Positions 1 to 10,297 of a stretch of DNA of 54,030 nucleotides are shown here, piece by piece. A program made the translations under genes and the position numbers. Below the pieces are notes generated by a model. It saw nothing but the letters and a program-made list of their open reading frames with translations, had not been told where the DNA came from and ran no database searches. Source of the DNA: an uncultured bacterium (lineage in GTDB: Bacteria > CSSED10-310 > CAZUFC01); assembly GCA_964619725.1 (NCBI GenBank), contig CAZUFC010000054.1, forward strand, positions 1 through 54,030, written 5' to 3'. Within the stretch, counting starts at the first letter, position 1. The number at the start of each line of letters is the position of its first letter.

Positions 1-226
1 TGTGGGTCGGGCTCAAGGTCGGCGAAAGCGTCAACGTCGGGGACTGCGTCGGCGTCTCCGTCGGACTGTAGGTCGGGCTCAAGGTCGGCGAAAGCGTCAA
101 CGTCGGGGACAATGTCGGCGTTTCAGTCGGACTGTGGGTCGGGCTCAAGGTCGGCGAAAGCGTCAACGTCGGGGACTGCGTCGGCGTCTCCGTCGGACTG
201 TCGGTCGGACTCAAGGTCGGACTTAA
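1..226 (-). repeat. Coding tandem repeat, 66-bp period (22 aa of SPT/TPT linker)
   Basis: ggtcgggctcaaggtcggcgaaagcgtcaacgtcggggac recurs at 5, 71 and 137. The minus frame reads [21 protein letters not shown]. Confidence 0.9.
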
Positions 227-1486
227 CGTCGGACTCAGCGTCGGCGTTTTCGTCGGCGTCAAGGTCGGGCTTAAGGTCGGCGTTTCTGTAGGTGTTTCGG
301 TCGGCGTTATCGTCGGCGAAAAAGTCTCTGTCGGCGCCGCTGTCGGAGTCGAATAGCCCGTTTCACTCCCGAAACTGCTCCAGGACGGTTCCGGATTCCT
401 GTAACGCGATATCCTGAAATCATCATATCTGATCGCTCCCTGCCTGATACGAAAACGAACCGTTTTCAACGTCAACGTCGTCGTGTCGCTGGTCGGCGAT
501 ATCTCTCCATATGTGCTGCCGTCCCGCACAATCTTCATATACTCATCATCCATATAAAAATCCAGAGTATACCAATGGTTAGTCGTTCCCGTCGGTTTGT
601 CTTTAAAAACAGAATCCGTCGTTGTACCCTGGACTCTCTTCCTCATCACCTCACTGTCGCCCGAAGTAGTATAATAATTTCCTCCATAAAAATATTCGTC
701 ATCATCTCCGTTCGTTTCCCATAAAATCGTATTGAACGTAGCTCCTTCCACTACAGAACTGTAAACATTGTAAGTATAATGAAAATATAATCCTGTATCA
801 TTAAAAGCATTCTCCGGAAAATACATGTATCTCACCTGGTTGTCGCTCGACGCGTTCAAATAACCCCACTCGTTTGATGAATCATAATTGTGATTCCCTG
901 TGTAAACGCCTAAATTCGAAGAAAAATCATCAAACCATAAAAATGTCTCCGAAGCATCACTCGCGCTGCTCGCCCCAGAATTCCCGTAATACATCAATAT
1001 CTCATCGTCGCTCTCCGCGTCAGATGAAACTTCAACCCATATCTCCGCATTATCCCCGTTCGTTTTCTCCTCAATCCAATAATCCAAAGTCGTAGAATTG
1101 TCCACGTCCACAAAACGAATATCCGAAAAATCAGTGTTGCAGTGTCCATGACAATGAACATCATAACTCGATCCATTCGAATCATAGCCCACCACGATTT
1201 TCATCTGATAATCATTCACCGAATTGCTTATATTGCAACTCTTGTAATATCCCCAGCTCGAATTCCACCAATAACCGTCACGGTCATTCCCGAAACTCCG
1301 TATCGGTTCCCTTATGCCGCCCTTAAGACTCCCTGTGATTACCATAGACAAAAACGCGGCCATGATGATCCAAAATTTCTTTTTACCGGTGCATGAGAAT
1401 GCAAAAGAGCGATTCTCATCCTTTCTCCCTGCAATTGTCCGAAAGCTTTGTTTCAGGACTCTCCGAAAAAACGCATGATCTCTCAT
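1..1486 (-). CDS. Secreted DUF2341-like domain protein with Pro/Thr/Ser-rich linker (3' end runs off the window)
   Basis: Not in the ORF track. Manual translation gives an open frame from ATG at 1486 to the window edge. It has a hydrophobic stretch [21 protein letters not shown]2341-like motifs ([53 protein letters not shown]) and then (S/T)PT repeats. The start codon is uncertain. Confidence 0.8.
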
Positions 1487-2436: not shown

Positions 2437-3483
2437 TTAACTTATCAAACCTCTCTGATAACCTCTCAGGAATCTGGAAAGGGTTTTGGGTTCGGCGTAT
2501 TTGAAGAAATCGCGATTGACGTCGGTGAAATTTTTTCCCTTAAAGATCAGTTGATCGATCAGTTCGTAAGTCTTCTCGTCGGTAATCAAATTGTCCATGT
2601 TCGCGGATGCGATTTCAGCGGCCAGCTTCGAACGGCGATCGCATATTTCTCTGACTCTGTTGCTGACGTTTTTTTCCTTGCCGTTAAAATAAATTATTTT
2701 GGGATAACCGCAAACGCCTGCAGTTTGTCTGAAGGCAAAGTTCAACCCTTTGAGCAGTGCGATGAGCCCGTCGACGCGATCTACGGAATCCCGACGCTCC
2801 ATAATTGATCTGGTATCGGCGAAACGGCTGAACTGCAGTTCGCATGTATCGCGTCCTGAACCCTGCGCCAGAAAAATTTCATGAACTTCTTCACAAACGG
2901 GCCAACGTTCCGTCATATAAAATATCTTAAAGCCGCATTCCGGTCTGTATCCCGCCAGAACCTGGGAATTCCCGTATATTCCTTTAACTTCCTGGGGAGC
3001 TCCTTTATTCGTAATCAGATTGACGGCTTCTTCGATCACTTTGTCGTCTTTTATAGTTATTTCCCGATCTTTGCTGGAATATTTTCCTTCCACCAGGTCA
3101 TTCGCCCTGAATCCGAACTGGCCGACGAGATAATCGTCTATGTGTTCTCTTTTTATCCTGGTGCAAACGTCCTGAGCTATCTGAGCGAGTTCGGCCAGGG
3201 TTTTAAATTTTTCAGGGACCGCACACAGCTTTTTCTTTTCCGCAGAATAAAGCCGAGTGTATTCCTTTTCCACCTGAACGATGAATTCATCGCCGACACT
3301 GGAGCTTCCGGTCTGCCCCATAAACATCCAGGTCTGTTGTTCTTCGCCGAGTTCGCGGTTCGTGACCTGTCTGATTTTTTCGGGCGTAAAAAATACCACC
3401 CATTCGGGATTCCAATACCGAACTTCATCACATATCATCAAACCTTCATCATGATTCAATCTTAATGCATTTATCGAAGTCAT
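2437..3483 (-). CDS. Proteasome-beta/Ntn-hydrolase-like protein, putatively active (Thr1)
   Basis: Starts MTSINAL...GLMICDE. After Met removal it has Thr1, Asp18 and Lys35 (EKIRQV), then MGQTG, VLAGY, FLAQGSG and the helix DGLIALLKGL...GVCG, in proteasome-beta order. Confidence 0.7.
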   Translation of the reverse strand: MTSINALRLNHDEGLMICDEVRYWNPEWVVFFTPEKIRQVTNRELGEEQQTWMFMGQTGSSSVGDEFIVQVEKEYTRLYSAEKKKLCAVPEKFKTLAELAQIAQDVCTRIKREHIDDYLVGQFGFRANDLVEGKYSSKDREITIKDDKVIEEAVNLITNKGAPQEVKGIYGNSQVLAGYRPECGFKIFYMTERWPVCEEVHEIFLAQGSGRDTCELQFSRFADTRSIMERRDSVDRVDGLIALLKGLNFAFRQTAGVCGYPKIIYFNGKEKNVSNRVREICDRRSKLAAEIASANMDNLITDEKTYELIDQLIFKGKNFTDVNRDFFKYAEPKTLSRFLRGYQRGLIS

Positions 3484-4583
3484 TCGGATTTCCTCCCCTT
3501 TCCCTGCTTTTTCGTTTCCGTGCCTTTTGCGTCCATCTCCTCCATTATCTCAGGAATTTCTTTTTCCTTGTAATTTCTCAACAGTAAATCCAATGCCATC
3601 GAATCCTTTGCCGAATCAAAGAATTTCGCTTCAGTCTTTTCCACATCCGCCATTTTTAAAACTAATTCCTCCAGAAGCTTGATCATCTTATCCTCAGCGA
3701 TCATACCCGCCATCTGGGCTCTGACTATTTCGACGCAAAGCCTGGAACGGGAATCAATATATTCTCTGCAGCGCAAATCATGCGTCCCGGCGCCTCCGTC
3801 CAGCAGAATAAAAGGAAAATTACCTCCAATTTCTTTGAAATGCTGCGATGCCAATATGCTTGCCTTTATCAGCTCCACCAACCCCTCTATCGTCGAATAG
3901 CCCTTTTTCCTCAGGGGCAGATGCTTCTGGTTGAAGTCCATGCCGAAAGACATGCCTACCGCATATTTGCCCGCTCCAATGCTTTCGAAACCCTCATGCA
4001 CATAACCCCGGATCGAATTTTCAATCGACAGATGATAACAGCCTATCCCGTCACGAGAATCATGCCCGAATATGACCGCCTTGCTGTCATACACAGCCTT
4101 CAACAAAGCATCTTTAGTCTTTACCGAAGCTATCTGTCTGGCTTCATCTTTGATCTTTTGAGTATTAATCGAAACCTTTTTGCCCTTGTGGTCGAAGTAT
4201 CCCTGGTTCAGTTCGTCCGTGTCGAATCCATAATAAAATTTCAACTTCTGATCGACGCGTCGCCTTACCGCTTCCTGCAGCTTATCGAAAGCTATCCGCG
4301 CCACATCCTCGATCGTCGACGGCGCCGGCGTCTCCCCGTTCTCACCTCTCAATATTCGTCCCAGTTCTTCCCGCGTATCCCTGACCGTCTCATGATGAAT
4401 TGAAGGATATCCCACGCCGCCGTAAATGATCTCCAGATTCCAGGCTTCGCTCATCTTCTCGTCCGTTATTATACTTAAACTGTCGGCGTGATATCTTCTG
4501 CGAAAAAAAACAGTCCAGTACTCCTCATCGGCAATAATCGCTCCCTTATCCCGATCAAAACGCAAGATATTGACCAACGACAT
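3480..4583 (-). CDS. Proteasome-beta/Ntn-hydrolase-like paralogue, putatively degenerate (Ser1, no Lys, GAG)
   Basis: Starts MSLVNIL...GAIIADE, then IYGGVG, STIEDVARIA, AVIFGHD, FESIGAG and EGLVELIKASILA...EIGG. It has an AGGAGG RBS and a 4-bp overlap with the next gene. Confidence 0.7.
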   Translation of the reverse strand: MSLVNILRFDRDKGAIIADEEYWTVFFRRRYHADSLSIITDEKMSEAWNLEIIYGGVGYPSIHHETVRDTREELGRILRGENGETPAPSTIEDVARIAFDKLQEAVRRRVDQKLKFYYGFDTDELNQGYFDHKGKKVSINTQKIKDEARQIASVKTKDALLKAVYDSKAVIFGHDSRDGIGCYHLSIENSIRGYVHEGFESIGAGKYAVGMSFGMDFNQKHLPLRKKGYSTIEGLVELIKASILASQHFKEIGGNFPFILLDGGAGTHDLRCREYIDSRSRLCVEIVRAQMAGMIAEDKMIKLLEELVLKMADVEKTEAKFFDSAKDSMALDLLLRNYKEKEIPEIMEEMDAKGTETKKQGKGRKSE

Positions 4584-4737
4584 CTTTTAAAATCCTCCTG
4601 TAATTTTGTGACCTGTAAGTTCACCTAATAGCGTAAATTCTGTAAAATTACGAAAAACTTCGCTATTTTGTTTTCCATTCGTCCTCATCATCTCTTTCGT
4701 CTTTGAATCTTCCCCGGCGTCAGCGCAAAACCGTCCG

Positions 4738-5295
4738 CTAGCTCTCCTGTTCGCGGTTTTGCGAGGTAATTCGTATCAACGCTTTCCTGTAGTGATCAAA
4801 TGTTTTATCATCAAAGAGCACGAACACAATTTCTTTCAATTTCGTCTCAACGCCTTTTATATATGCCGTAACGGTTTTCATCGCCGTCTCCGCCGCTTTA
4901 TCCGCCGGGTATCCGTATATTCCCGTGCTGATGCTCGGAAACGCTATCGATTTACAATCATGTTTATCCGCCAGTTCCAGGCTTGTCCTGTAAGCCCCGG
5001 CCAGCTTTTCTTCCTCCTCACGCGTCCCTCCGCTCCATACCGGACCGACAGCGTGTATCACATGCCTGGCCGGTAAATTACCCGCTCCCGTTATAACGGC
5101 GCTTCCCGTCGGACACATGCCTATCTCCCGGCACTCATCCAGCAACCTGGGACCGGCTTTTTTGTGTATCGCTCCGTCTACGCCGCCGCCGCCCCGCAAA
5201 CCGGAATTGGCGGCAGTGACTATAGCGTCGGTCTTCTGATCCGTGATATCACCCTGCACCAGCTTCACGACGGTACTACCGATCTTCTTTTCCAT
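4738..5295 (-). CDS. ymdB: Macro-domain protein (O-acetyl-ADP-ribose deacetylase, YmdB-like)
   Basis: Motifs GDIT, DAIVTAANSGLRGGGGVDGAIH and SIAFPSISTGIYGYP. Start moved to ATG 5295, behind a GAAGG RBS. Confidence 0.92.
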   Translation of the reverse strand: MEKKIGSTVVKLVQGDITDQKTDAIVTAANSGLRGGGGVDGAIHKKAGPRLLDECREIGMCPTGSAVITGAGNLPARHVIHAVGPVWSGGTREEEEKLAGAYRTSLELADKHDCKSIAFPSISTGIYGYPADKAAETAMKTVTAYIKGVETKLKEIVFVLFDDKTFDHYRKALIRITSQNREQES

Positions 5296-5317
5296 TTCGC
5301 AACCTTCCTTCGCATCC

Positions 5318-6571
5318 TTACTTAACAAGATTATACAAAGATTTAATCTTTTCCGTAAAATCTTCCCGAGGATCGAATCCCGTTCCTTTATATCGAACTC
5401 TACCCTTCTTATCCAGTACTATCATGCTCGGAATTCCCTGCAACTGAAACTTCACCATAGCTTCTGAACTGTGAGCCAAAGGCAGATCAAGCGATTTCTT
5501 ACTCATAAAATCTTTTATCTTAAGCTTCACGCTCTCCCGGTCTACGCTCAACGCCAGAAATTCTATATCACCCTTCGATTTCAACTTCTCATAAGCCTCT
5601 TCAAACTTGGGCAACTCTATATGACAGGGTTTGCACCAGGTCGCCCACATATTCAAAAAGAGCACTTTGCCCTTGTAATCACTCAATTTCTTTTTCGTTT
5701 TGCCGTCAAGCATGTCCAGCGTCACACGCGGAGGTTCCTCATCAATAAGACTATCTTTTAAAACCTGGAGCTTCTGCTCTTCCAGCGCCTTCTCCGCATC
5801 ACTTACCGCTTCGTCAAATCCTGCTTCATTTCCCCCGTGCGCCGATTTATAAACTTCCCTTAAAAAAGCTTCTCTTTCTTCCGTTAAATCTTCCTTCGGA
5901 GCGAGCAACAACTTGCCTGTCTTCCAGGCGTCTTCATAACGGTCCATCTCATGATAAAGCCTGGCCAGCTTCATTCGCAATTCAGGAATATGCGAGAAAT
6001 CCTCCATTAATTCTTCCAGAATTTCGAGCGCTTTCTGATTTTCTCCCTGCTTCATATAGACAAGCGACAGAGTGTCTTTTATCTGGGCCAGTCTCTGAGC
6101 TTTTATGGCTTCAAACTGACCGGCGTCCATACCCGCTCCGCCGGAAGACTGCAGATTCCCGATCATCTCAACGGCTTTTTTCGCCATCTTTTCAGCCCTG
6201 TCCAGCCTGATTTCGGTTTCCGCCAGTTTGTAAGCCAGTATATTCAAAAAATCGGGACTCCTGTTCTCCATTTCCAATTCCGCTGCCTTTTCCCAAATTT
6301 TCTTCGCCTTCTCCTGCTCGCCGGCCTCCTCATATGTCACGCCCAACTGTATATAAGCCGATCCCGTGAATACCGAATCCGAGTGATCTTCAATGAATTT
6401 TTCGAGCGCTTCGATCTTCTCGTCCGTATCTTTCTCCCGCATCGCTTCCATTAATTCCATGCGTATCTCATCCGCGCTTTTTTCCGTTGCAGCCGCATTA
6501 TATCCCGGAGGACCAATCAAAATCGCAGATGCAACCGCTAATGACATAATCAAAAGATTTCCTTTTTTCAT
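5318..6571 (-). CDS. Exported TPR-repeat protein with C-terminal TlpA/ResA-like thioredoxin
   Basis: Signal-like N-terminus, TPR-like helices and LNMWATWCKPCHIELP (CxxC). Start moved to ATG 6571, behind a GGGAG RBS. Confidence 0.85.
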   Translation of the reverse strand: MKKGNLLIMSLAVASAILIGPPGYNAAATEKSADEIRMELMEAMREKDTDEKIEALEKFIEDHSDSVFTGSAYIQLGVTYEEAGEQEKAKKIWEKAAELEMENRSPDFLNILAYKLAETEIRLDRAEKMAKKAVEMIGNLQSSGGAGMDAGQFEAIKAQRLAQIKDTLSLVYMKQGENQKALEILEELMEDFSHIPELRMKLARLYHEMDRYEDAWKTGKLLLAPKEDLTEEREAFLREVYKSAHGGNEAGFDEAVSDAEKALEEQKLQVLKDSLIDEEPPRVTLDMLDGKTKKKLSDYKGKVLFLNMWATWCKPCHIELPKFEEAYEKLKSKGDIEFLALSVDRESVKLKIKDFMSKKSLDLPLAHSSEAMVKFQLQGIPSMIVLDKKGRVRYKGTGFDPREDFTEKIKSLYNLVK

Positions 6572-6875
6572 CTGAATCTCCCTGTTTATCTTCAACATCG
6601 CGTTTACCGGAGAATCCGGTCGTCTATTCTAATATGCCTTTTGAACAGAAGTAAACCGTATGAGTGAAAAAAAGTCGGAACAAGGCATTGAATTTTTGGT
6701 CAGTCTTAATAGGAATCAATTGAATTGCTGGTTGGCATGCGGCTGTTTTCAGATTTTCCTTGACCTTAAATTTCATTTTATTATATTTGTTTATCCGGTT
6801 GACGCCGGTTTTTAATGGAATTAATGTTCTTACGTTGACGATTAACCCAAAGCAAAATAAGGCTGCGAGGTTCAG

Positions 6876-8159
6876 ATGAGATTATATGAAAATGAAGCAA
6901 AAAAAGTTTTCAGAATGATGGGAATGTCATGCCCGAAAAGTTACGGGGTGATAAATTCGCCGGAGGCCCCCTTACTGGTTGAGGCCGGTTATCCTATGAT
7001 GTTGAAGGCATTGGTGTTGATCGGCGGCAGGGGCAAGGCCGGCGGCATCAAGAAGGTCGAGAATCCCCAAGAAGCGCGAAATGCTGCAGCTCAAATATTG
7101 GGGGCGCGCATTCGCGGCTACGAAGTGAATAGTCTGTTGGTCGAGGAAGCCGTCGAGGAGGTCGCGGCATGCTATGTTGGCGTAACCATGGACCCCGCCT
7201 CTTACAACCTGGCGCTGATGGTCAGTCCTTCCGGCGGAGTAGATATTGAAACTGTGGCGAGAGAAAGGCCGGAGGATATACTGAGGATAGAGATTCAGGA
7301 TAATGCGGAAGAATTGCCGCAGGAAAAGGCGCAACAGGCTGCAGAATTTTTAACGTCGAAACAGTATGCAGACGATCGATTAATCGAAGGTCTGGCGCTG
7401 ACTGTTACGCAACTCTATAATCTTTTCCAGAAATATGACTGTAAAACGGCTGAAATTAATCCTTTAATTATAAGCAAATCAGCTCCTTCGGCTGCTGATG
7501 CTAAAATTGTCATCGACGATAATGCTCTATTCCGCAATCAGGAGTTGCTCGAATCGCTCGGAATCGAAAAAAAGCGACATGACGTTTCCGAATCAACTTC
7601 TCGTGAAATCAGGGCGCTCAAAGCAGGTTTTCCTTACGTAGACCTTCTGCCTGAAGATTTTGAAAAGGACAAAACAAAGCTTTACGTGGGACTGGTCCCC
7701 GGAGGCGCAGGTTACGGCATATTCTCTATTGATGAAGTCGTAAACGTAGGTAATCGTTTCTTCGACGGAAACGCAGTTCCCGTTAATTTTATGGACAGCG
7801 GCGGAGGTCCCTCGCAGGCTGCAGTCGAAGAGATGTTTCATCTGCTGATGGACTATGACATCGTCGATCTCATCATTACATCACGTTTCGGCGGCATTTC
7901 CAGTTGCGATGTGTTCATCAGAGGCTTGATACAGTGCATCCGGGATCGCTATTCACAGGGTCGGCGCCTGGTTCCCGTTTACGGACGCATGGTCGGTACC
8001 GACCTTCCCAGCGCCGGCGCATTCCTGGAAAAAGCCCTTGCCGAAACCCCTGAAGCTCTCTCAGAAATGAAAATCATAGTGGGCAACAGAAAAATTATGG
8101 CGGAAGTGATCAAAGAAGCCCTGGAACGAGGATTCTCTCTGAAAGGAGACGCAGTATGA
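6876..8159 (+). CDS. Succinyl-CoA synthetase beta-like ATP-grasp subunit (citryl-CoA synthetase/ACL-beta-like)
   Basis: Motifs MRLYENEAK, LKALVLIGGRGKAGGI, GGVDIE, AEINPL, DAKIVIDDNALFR and NFMDSGGG. Confidence 0.85.
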   Translation: MRLYENEAKKVFRMMGMSCPKSYGVINSPEAPLLVEAGYPMMLKALVLIGGRGKAGGIKKVENPQEARNAAAQILGARIRGYEVNSLLVEEAVEEVAACYVGVTMDPASYNLALMVSPSGGVDIETVARERPEDILRIEIQDNAEELPQEKAQQAAEFLTSKQYADDRLIEGLALTVTQLYNLFQKYDCKTAEINPLIISKSAPSAADAKIVIDDNALFRNQELLESLGIEKKRHDVSESTSREIRALKAGFPYVDLLPEDFEKDKTKLYVGLVPGGAGYGIFSIDEVVNVGNRFFDGNAVPVNFMDSGGGPSQAAVEEMFHLLMDYDIVDLIITSRFGGISSCDVFIRGLIQCIRDRYSQGRRLVPVYGRMVGTDLPSAGAFLEKALAETPEALSEMKIIVGNRKIMAEVIKEALERGFSLKGDAV

Positions 8160-10297
8160 CGACTCCACAAAAAATAAACGTCAAAGACGGACTTCTGTTT
8201 TATCTCATATCGAAAATCAGGCCTGAACTGGCCAATAAAATAGCCGAAAAAAATGAAGTGGAAACTGCCATCGTAGGACTCGGACGTCAGGGAGTCAGAC
8301 ATGCCGGCATTATGAAGGACTTCGGGACCTGTATATCCGCCGGCATAGCTCCCGGCAAAGGCGGTCAAAAGATTCATGAAACCATTCCGGTTTACGACAG
8401 TGTGAAAGACTGCCTGCAAGAACATCCTGACATTGCAGCAGTGAGCATCTGGCGTCATTATTCCATGGCCAAAGAAGCCGCCCTGGAAGTCATCGAATCG
8501 GGCATCCCTTTCGTCGTTCTTATAACCGAAGGCATTCCTCTCAAGGACGTCCGGCATATATTAACGGCGGCGAGGAGACACAATACATTGCTGCTGGGCG
8601 GCAATACGCCGGGAGTAATCTTTCCGCCTGAAGGCATAAAGATCGGCATGCTGCCTGATGTTTTCTATCCCGAAGAAATCAGGGAAAATGTTTTCGGTCC
8701 GCATGGAGTCACCATTATTTCCCGCAGCGGGGCCATTCTTTATCACATGTCTGATGCCCTGGCCAGCGTCGGCGTTGCTCAGAACGCTGTGCTGGGCATC
8801 GGCGGCGACGGAGCTATCGGAACGCCCTTCAAAGATATCGTGCCCCTGGTTATGGGACATAAAAATACCGACCTGGTCGTCATAGCAGGCGAAATAGGCG
8901 GATGCGCCGAAGAAATGCTGGCTCAACGTAAAAAAGAGCATCCTGAACTCTTCCCCAAGAAAATCGTCGCCCTCATCTCCGGCGCCAACGCTCCCGAAGG
9001 CAAAACCATGGGGCATGCCGGCGCCATCGTTGCCCCAGGGCAGGAATACGGCACATTCCAGGCCAAGAAGAAAGCGCTGGAAGAAGTCGGCATTCCGGTC
9101 GCCAACAGCCAACTGGACCTGATATCCCTGGTCAAAAAAGCCTTGAACGGTAAAAAATACTTTCAAGCCGAACGTTACTACCAGAAAATGAAAAAAATGT
9201 GGGAAGCAAAACCTCCCGAACCCACCTGGGGCACCCTCATCACCAGAGTAGCCCCCAATGACCTGGTGATTCGCGGTTATCCCCTGAAAAATCTCGTTGC
9301 GGACGAATCGCTCATGAGTGTCGTTCATCTGCTTATCGAAGGAAAACTGCCCGCGCAGGAAAAACAGACGGAAATGGAATCCCTGTTCATTGAATCTCTT
9401 AAATATGAAATCCCTGATATTGAAATTTTCGACCAGGAGGACATATCGCAGACCCTATCCCGTTTTCTGCTGACCGATCCGCAATTAATCGAATTCAATC
9501 CTCAAACTGAAAACGGGGCATTGAATAAAACGGTCCTGTGCCTGGCGAGGACTGCCGCATTCCTGGGAAAACTGAATGGAATAAAAGAGGTCGAAACTGA
9601 AGTCCTTGGCGGCAGACTGGCCTTCAATGAAATTATTTATCGCCTCCTAACCGGAAAACAAACCACCGACATCAGGAACGCCAGGTTATTCGAATCCATG
9701 ATAGTCGCCAGCGTCGATCACGGCGTCACGCCTCCTTCGGCACAGGCTGCCGTCATCGCCGCTTCCGTCAGGGCATCTTACGAGACCGCTATCGCCCACG
9801 GAGTCGGCGCTATCACCGATGTTCACGGCGGGGCAGGAGCTAAAGCAGCCCTTTTCTTTAAGAATGCAGTAGAAAAATCCAGAACGGAAGGCCTCACGCT
9901 GAAAAACGCTGTCAAAAAGCAAATAACAAAAGCCGCAGACTCTGGCAAAAGAATCGAAGGAATGGGACACAGAATTCATACGCAAGACCCCAGAAGAGAC
10001 GTCATCTGGAGCATGGCCGAAAAAGCCGGCGTCGACGGACCGGCCATAAAAATTTCCAAAATGATCGGAGAACTCTTCGATCAGATACGAGGTCTGAACC
10101 TTCCCATAAACGTAGACGGAGTCATCGGCGCTGTTGTCTCAGACATGAACCTCGATCCCAGACTGGCAAAAATAATATTCATCTACGGCAGAATCGCAGG
10201 ACTCTCCGCACACTACTACGAAGAAATTACAACCCAACCCCCCATGAGAAGAATTAATTTCGCTCAGGCTGTTTATAAGGGAAAAGAGAATAGTTGA
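8156..10297 (+). CDS. SucD-like CoA-ligase alpha subunit fused to a citrate-synthase/citryl-CoA-lyase-like domain
   Basis: N-half: ITEGIP, GGNTPG, ISRSG, GIGGD, GEIGG and the phospho-His motif MGHAGA. C-half: IRGYPL, DHGVTPPS, HGGAG, GMGHRIH..DPR, NVDG and GRIAGLSAH. It overlaps the upstream gene by 4 bp. Confidence 0.85.
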   Translation: MTTPQKINVKDGLLFYLISKIRPELANKIAEKNEVETAIVGLGRQGVRHAGIMKDFGTCISAGIAPGKGGQKIHETIPVYDSVKDCLQEHPDIAAVSIWRHYSMAKEAALEVIESGIPFVVLITEGIPLKDVRHILTAARRHNTLLLGGNTPGVIFPPEGIKIGMLPDVFYPEEIRENVFGPHGVTIISRSGAILYHMSDALASVGVAQNAVLGIGGDGAIGTPFKDIVPLVMGHKNTDLVVIAGEIGGCAEEMLAQRKKEHPELFPKKIVALISGANAPEGKTMGHAGAIVAPGQEYGTFQAKKKALEEVGIPVANSQLDLISLVKKALNGKKYFQAERYYQKMKKMWEAKPPEPTWGTLITRVAPNDLVIRGYPLKNLVADESLMSVVHLLIEGKLPAQEKQTEMESLFIESLKYEIPDIEIFDQEDISQTLSRFLLTDPQLIEFNPQTENGALNKTVLCLARTAAFLGKLNGIKEVETEVLGGRLAFNEIIYRLLTGKQTTDIRNARLFESMIVASVDHGVTPPSAQAAVIAASVRASYETAIAHGVGAITDVHGGAGAKAALFFKNAVEKSRTEGLTLKNAVKKQITKAADSGKRIEGMGHRIHTQDPRRDVIWSMAEKAGVDGPAIKISKMIGELFDQIRGLNLPINVDGVIGAVVSDMNLDPRLAKIIFIYGRIAGLSAHYYEEITTQPPMRRINFAQAVYKGKENS

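Follow-up and report, generated by a model that had tools for sequence, protein, structure and literature searches.

Overlapping genes for a catalytic-type and a degenerate proteasome-like protein in an uncultured CSSED10-310 bacterium

The stretch of DNA analyzed here, referred to as the window, comprises the 54,030 nucleotides of contig CAZUFC010000054.1 (GenBank assembly GCA_964619725.1) from an uncultured bacterium of the CSSED10-310 lineage, and contains two adjacent open reading frames (ORFs) on the minus strand that encode proteasome-like proteins. Gene A (3480..4583) encodes the degenerate, non-catalytic-type paralogue with 367 amino acids (aa) and is followed by gene B (2437..3483), which encodes the catalytic-type paralogue with 348 aa. 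The stop codon of A and the start codon of B share an ATGA overlap of 4 bp (3480..3483), an arrangement that points to translational coupling. Read from the sequence, a Shine-Dalgarno-like GGGGAGGA for gene B lies within the 3' end of gene A (3491..3498) and precedes the ATGA junction by 7 nt, and a Shine-Dalgarno AGGAGG for gene A is found 5' of its ATG (4594..4599), both on the minus strand. BLASTP aligned the two proteins end to end with 24% identity over 344 columns (E-value 1e-34), and they are therefore paralogues. Both the overlapping ORFs and the resemblance along their full length had been described in the first-pass annotation, a reading of the letters that preceded this analysis, and both descriptions agree with the coordinates and the alignment.

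Full-length proteins (290-400 aa) accounted for 178 of the 216 proteins collected for this family, and clade counts were taken from these. They fall into a long Thr-type clade (n = 92, ~345 aa, starting MTSINA), a short Thr-type clade (n = 40, ~310 aa, starting MTVINAMK), and a degenerate clade (n = 46, 350-390 aa). In an IQ-TREE phylogeny inferred from a sample of 88 of these 178 proteins, each clade forms one side of a branch, with Shimodaira-Hasegawa-like approximate likelihood ratio test (SH-aLRT) values of 100, 100, and 72 for the degenerate, short, and long clades, respectively. As the degenerate proteins form one ancient clade, Thr1 and Lys were lost once.

The column table of the family alignment places Thr2, Asp19, Lys36, and Gly-Ser-Gly (GSG, 208-210) in B, whereas A carries Ser2, Asp19, a Ser in the column equivalent to Lys33, and GAG replacing GSG. 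These are the same residues on which the earlier contrast between an active-type and a degenerate copy had been drawn. The combination of Thr/Ser1, Asp17, Lys33, and Gly-Ser-Gly is complete in B-type proteins and incomplete in A-type proteins. Thr comes directly after the initial Met in 89 of the 92 long and 37 of the 40 short Thr-type proteins, so that the propeptide is absent, as had been proposed. Within the long Thr-type clade, Lys36 is conserved in 100% and Asp19 in 97% of proteins, and G208, S209, and G210 in 100, 98, and 96%, respectively. In the degenerate clade, where 44 of 46 proteins begin with Met, the following residue is Ala in 26, Gly in 9, Ser in 6, and another residue in 3. 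Asp19 is conserved there in 91%, the Lys column is variable, a G-x-G stands where the Thr-types have GSG, and G203 and R225 are invariant and specific to that clade. The closest orthologues of A begin MSLVNF or MALVNF; its Ser is not conserved among them and is therefore not regarded as a nucleophile. A near-invariant L-R-G-Y occurs close to the C-terminus in all three clades (L339 and R340 at least 90%, 149 sequences). The tail beyond this LRGY is longest and mildly basic in degenerate proteins, with a median of 25 residues and a median charge of +2, while Thr-type tails are shorter with a median charge of +1 (median 4.5 residues in the long Thr-type).

AlphaFold2 models of A and B were built with a 149-sequence alignment and reached a predicted local distance difference test (pLDDT) of 96.9 and a predicted template modelling score (pTM) of 0.93 for B, and 95.9 and 0.91 for A. 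In these predicted structures, both proteins have the proteasome (N-terminal nucleophile, Ntn) alpha-beta-beta-alpha fold. Foldseek against the PDB returned at least 500 matches at E <= 1e-3 for each model. Among the top matches listed for B, all were alpha or beta chains of the 20S proteasome, with 8g6f_C as the best (7.4e-10) and a target TM-score (TMt) of 0.81 at a root-mean-square deviation (rmsd) of 2.9 for 7ls5_H. The best match of A was the 20S proteasome chain 7pxa_U (E 2.9e-9, TMt 0.76), and the matches listed for A were proteasome chains except for Anbu 5nyw_H at rank 48. In the structural match table, 20S beta subunits stood highest with 23.4 (rmsd 2.3, 195 aligned) and 23.2 (183/183), followed by Anbu with 22.1 (216 aligned) and PrcB with 19.6. 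Alpha subunits reached 18.4-18.6, HslV 18.4, BPH 16.6 and 15.8, acid ceramidase 12.3, and Connectase 11.2 and 10.7. Homologue models from the ESM Atlas gave TM-scores against PF00227-bearing clusters of 0.58 and 0.73 for the Thr-type and 0.60 and 0.68 for the degenerate type. A viral structure library yielded 36 matches at E <= 1e-3, all of them small phage proteasome-like proteins (query TM-score, TMq, <=0.41), and none of the 36 spans the insertions of A and B. The proteasome-like nature of A and B is established, and the proteasome-beta motif order seen in the first pass is confirmed by the models and their top matches.

From its N-terminus, the B model runs through S1 (4-8), S2 (13-18), Asp19, short strands, Lys36, and S4 (37-39), and then through a short helix (43-49) and S5 (52-58), the end of which forms the Gly-rich loop. 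H1 (61-86) and H2 (96-123) lead into an insertion (124-171) composed of a helix, a beta-hairpin, and two helices. Four strands across 173-207 precede GSG and are followed by H3 (211-223), an extra small helix (227-232), H4 (236-253), the strands 262-267 and 277-280, H5 (283-296), and four more helices up to residue 347. The A model keeps a B-like order and adds one long terminal helix (340-360). Of the two additions to the fold described previously, the helical C-terminal extension is present with ~50 residues in the models, and the shared insertion is likewise present, at ~48 residues instead of the ~60 first estimated.

Neither A nor B had a meaningful match in Pfam, NCBIfam, PADLOC, or PHROGs, and phmmer with B alone against PDB sequences returned nothing. 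Sub-threshold matches to PF00227 were obtained for two of ten relatives scanned, with 20.9 and 17.2 bits (cut-off 22.4). A word-indexed search found 68 relatives, which were named "hypothetical protein" where named, with one exception. The truncated 218-aa family member P0068 is labelled "rRNA-processing protein FCF1" by one source, probably a misannotation. An exhaustive search covering 1.84 billion representatives gave 214 matches at E <= 1e-3, 108 at E <= 1e-10, and 40 at E <= 1e-30, among which one 5409-aa repeat protein was spurious; accessions seen for the family are OGL42185.1 and MBW2964981.1. Weaker, independent support for the proteasome relationship came from sequence profiles. The family profile against the PDB gave 77 matches at E <= 10, the best with E 6.6e-4 over a region including GSG. 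Among the 60 matches listed, nearly all were proteasome chains, the exceptions being SiAga1 and two designed helical repeats. Aligned by hhalign with six canonical proteins from related genomes (beta, alpha, and HslV), the family reached an E-value of 5.7e-4 and a probability of 29.6% over 85 columns. A profile of the short type retrieved 34 matches, all of the same short family, and gave no bridge to annotated proteasome proteins.

The window genome (9.17 Mb in 344 contigs, 90.9% complete) contains three pairs (contigs C54, C12, and C99), with the degenerate gene upstream in each. Among 40 other genomes sampled, 12 of the 13 from the same phylum had 2-10 family matches each, and none of the 27 from other phyla had any. 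A scan of 185,579 species genomes, with a 48-sequence alignment of the long Thr-type as the query, identified 76 loci in 38 assemblies, every one a metagenome-assembled genome (MAG), and the number of pairs per genome ranges from one to five. The labels of these MAGs include CSSED10-310, Vulcanimicrobiota, Wallbacteria, Muiribacteriota, Sumerlaeota, Schekmanbacteria, Planctomycetota, Bacillota, Synergistia, and Gemmatimonadota. The 76 loci hold 77 Thr-type genes, 74 of which are assessable, as three lie at a contig end. For 67, a script filter found a same-strand degenerate gene as the immediate upstream neighbour, and three more pairs were recognized by eye: L031, where 466 bp separate the genes, and L086 and L090, where genes are partial. 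One is the second Thr-type gene of a triple, and three had no partner even at E < 10 (L048, L049, and L056, one sub-clade). The triple (L017, identical to L027; G001:C154) consists of one degenerate gene and then two tandem Thr-type genes.

A degenerate gene thus lies directly upstream of ~70 of the 74 assessable Thr-type genes, and the expectation that homologues occur as pairs and conserve Thr1 and Lys is borne out. The 4-bp overlap is found at 35 of 71 junctions between the degenerate and the Thr-type gene and a 1-bp overlap at 6, and the spacing is 33 bp or less at 65. Short Thr-type genes are solitary, with a single family member at all 24 of 24 metagenome loci, and the named short Thr-type proteins come from Candidatus Woesearchaeota. 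Pairing is therefore a property of the one Thr-type clade that has a degenerate partner.

Across the 67 pairs, the identity matrices of Thr-type and degenerate proteins correlate with r = 0.91, and the best neighbour agrees at 64 of 67 loci. The twelve Thr-type clades nest one-to-one in four degenerate clades, every Thr-type clade corresponding to one degenerate clade, and the three pairs of the window genome belong to three different clades. Given this co-divergence, the module was duplicated as a unit. Selection was estimated by the Nei-Gojobori method on 54 orthologous locus pairs, using values where synonymous divergence (dS) was unsaturated. Omega ranged from 0.03 to 0.22 in Thr-type and from 0.03 to 0.27 in degenerate genes, indicating purifying selection on both, and the degenerate gene is therefore maintained and not decaying.

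In the 20S proteasome, beta subunits have a propeptide and alpha subunits an N-terminal extension, whereas B begins Met-Thr and A begins at the same structural position as B. Relative to 20S subunits, A and B add the ~48-residue insertion after H2, the insert between H3 and H4, and the ~50-residue helical C-terminal extension. The two proteins are closest to each other, so their split is separate from the duplication of 20S alpha and beta. Anbu is encoded by a single gene and has no large insertion, in contrast to the paired and insertion-bearing A and B. The conserved operon partners of Anbu are ATP-grasp and transglutaminase-like proteins, and no such gene was found among the neighbours of the three window-genome loci or in the recurrent neighbour clusters. 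HslV and BPH are compact (171-185 residues), insertion-free, and form homo-oligomers, unlike the much longer A and B. By size, neither protein resembles the compact HslU-linked HslV subunit of ~175 residues, and hslU itself was not searched for. Connectase, likewise a Thr1 proteasome homologue, is similar to B in having extra elements and lacking a propeptide, while its two-helix insertion between S3 and S4 over the active site is absent from A and B.

The closest description in print concerns PMI-3 and PMI-4 ("Proteasome homolog with Multiple Insertions"), which are among the 22 new proteasome-like families catalogued by Fuchs, Alva and Lupas in 2021 (PMC8665760). As described in the main text of that article, both carry one long insertion following H1/H2 and another between H3 and H4, sites that are matched in B by 124-171 and the helix 227-232, and both lack a propeptide and an informative genomic context, as A and B do. 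The taxon ranges stated there for PMI-3 and PMI-4 omit the phyla found for the A/B family, and pairing with a degenerate paralogue was not found in its main text (PMC8665760). By accession, the published representatives OGZ26396.1 and HDY66466.1 differ from those seen for the A/B family. By the titles and abstracts of open citing papers, and the text of PMC13022661, no later work characterising the PMI families was found. Judged from these parts of the literature, the A/B family is either one of those of Fuchs et al. or a further one, and the word "undescribed" used in the first-pass annotation is uncertain. In kind, such a proteasome-like family has been anticipated in print; the conserved and co-diverging pairing of a catalytic-type and a degenerate protein, as against the solitary archaeal relative, is new.

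Taken together, A and B probably constitute a self-contained, translationally coupled module that supplies the two subunits of a divergent proteasome-like (Ntn) peptidase. The proposal of a heteromeric protease or transpeptidase with one catalytic and one structural subunit is partly supported, namely by the Ntn fold, the catalytic-type and degenerate sequences, and the conserved pairing, while the hetero-oligomer and its proteolytic activity are putative. Judged by its residues, B would be a Thr1 peptidase and the catalytic subunit. Since B has no propeptide, its Thr1 would be exposed by methionine aminopeptidase; Met can be removed when the second residue is Thr, Ala, Gly, or Ser. Proteasome subunits without their propeptide are inactive until assembly, and propeptides are absent in all other proteasome-like homologues covered in the main text of PMC8665760, so that the missing propeptide is no obstacle for B. 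Translational coupling would allow A to be made in step with B, and the two may assemble as a hetero-oligomer in which A, by analogy, would serve as a non-catalytic scaffold, gate, or adaptor. Their roles would be analogous to those of 20S alpha and beta, with an origin in a separate duplication inside the A/B family. The longer, mildly basic C-terminal tail of A could act in recruitment or gating, and the substrate would be a peptide or protein.

Several results weigh against this interpretation. A and B fall below every Pfam threshold and have no PF00227 match at E <= 1, and a profile restricted to the N-terminal part (residues 1-110, 43 fragments) retrieved no proteasome chain from the PDB, its best match being an unrelated protein (E 0.12). 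The equivalence of Asp19 and Lys36 to the proteasome Asp17 and Lys33 is a sequence-level assignment that rests on position, spacing, and conservation. Adjacency and co-divergence are to be expected from genetic linkage alone and are no proof of binding. The window DNA was matched in 4 DNA runs, all from one microbial-mat study, and no RNA run was listed as containing it. Finally, the three partnerless Thr-type genes indicate that B-type proteins may be functional alone.

The last point, together with the always solitary short Thr-type relatives and the one locus with a single degenerate gene ahead of two Thr-type genes, would also fit a B that acts by itself as a homo-oligomer or monomer, with A as a co-expressed pseudoenzyme (adaptor, inhibitor, or chaperone) and not a stoichiometric subunit. 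We regard this as rather unlikely, given that nearly all assessable Thr-type genes are immediately preceded by a degenerate gene, in most cases with an overlap of its stop codon and their start codon, and that each Thr-type clade has its own degenerate clade. The chemistry itself might differ from degradation, and the module could be a sequence-specific transpeptidase or ligase of the Connectase kind, or a processing amidase. Connectase is a Thr1 proteasome homologue that acts as a ligase (PMC7980362, PMC8665760), and Fuchs et al. argue that a long insertion at the H1/H2 site could act as a cap or else stand in the way of rings; for PMI-3 and PMI-4, the main text argues that large insertions might prevent ring assembly (PMC8665760). 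A function of this kind is considered quite unlikely here. It is very improbable that the enzyme is an Ntn amidohydrolase with a non-protein substrate, such as a lipid amide, a beta-lactam-like compound, or a nucleotide, as both its Thr/Asp/Lys arrangement and its best structural matches belong to the proteasome branch and no metabolic gene occurs among the conserved neighbours.

If A and B are indeed the two subunits of one peptidase, they bear on the long-standing question of how separate catalytic (beta) and non-catalytic (alpha) proteasome subunits originated, as the same kind of subunit split appears to be repeated in a different branch of the family. Tentatively, and as a serious possibility, the pair could represent a second independent invention of the proteasome division of labour. 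A catalytic protein and its non-catalytic sister, present as one to five cognate pairs per genome, would then form a new kind of hetero-oligomeric protease in uncultured bacterial phyla, most of which have neither HslV nor the 20S proteasome, and the solitary Woesearchaeota form would be the ancestral homo-oligomer. A living unpaired relative and several co-diverged isoform pairs per genome provide material for comparison. The system is simple, consisting of two genes with neither a propeptide nor an accessory ATPase found, so that its assembly and gating and the part played by a pseudo-subunit could be tested directly.

Proteins with PF00227 were present in 4 of 14 genomes of the phylum and none were found in the other 10, among them the window genome, and the A/B pairs may thus be the principal proteasome-like system of these lineages. 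One genome of the phylum, G002 (87% complete), is alone in lacking the A/B family, and it carries three PF00227 genes, of which two form a prcB/prcA-like pair and the third is HslV-like. Substitution of the A/B family for PF00227 proteins in the phylum is suggested by this single genome (n = 1).

Beside the pairs, no conserved third gene and no fixed AAA+ partner was found, and no search was aimed at hslU, pafA, pup, or mpa. The earlier statement that known partner genes are absent therefore stands for a fixed partner among the neighbours and does not extend to these four genes. The immediate neighbours of the pair in the window are a Macro-domain protein (4738-5328, minus strand, E 7.5e-46) directly upstream of gene A, a protein with TPR and redoxin/thioredoxin-like domains further upstream (5318-6598, minus strand), and a small membrane protein. 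No neighbour is common to the three pair loci of the window genome. At orthologous loci elsewhere, a ~420-aa ORF takes the position upstream of gene A. The locus on contig C12 (L007, G000:C12) has an IS200-like transposase gene downstream of the pair, and that on C99 (L008, G000:C99) a MazF/PemK-like toxin gene and a PD-(D/E)XK nuclease gene.

Recurrent neighbour clusters are synteny of orthologous loci. In one orthogroup, the pair is followed by polyprenyl synthetase, recN, nadK, an FtsJ/TlyA-like gene, dxs, and RNase Y, and oligopeptide-transporter genes lie upstream. Ser/Thr kinases were the commonest neighbour and the sole one recurring across orthogroups; their 24 ORFs occur at 21 of 78 loci and in 17 of the 39 genomes. 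As a partner they were set aside and kept as a lead only, because position, strand, and architecture vary and the 34 kinases of the window genome are not beside its pairs. Large multidomain kinases (kinase-AAA_16-TPR or two kinase domains) often adjoin pairs, as at L028, L029, L032-L035, L050, L051, L069, L080, L081, and others. One orthogroup has the degenerate gene, the Thr-type gene, a DUF4388 protein (186 aa), and a dual kinase in this order on one strand.

Elsewhere in the window, a 495-aa ORF (2-1486, minus strand) leaves the end of the window and has a long Pro-Thr/Ser-Pro-Thr-Leu repeat region at its finish. Two overlapping genes on the plus strand (6876-8159 and 8156-10297) encode ATP-grasp_2/Ligase_CoA and CoA_binding/Ligase_CoA/Citrate_synt domains, respectively. 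By domain content they are an ATP-citrate-lyase-like pair, which hints at a reductive tricarboxylic acid cycle.

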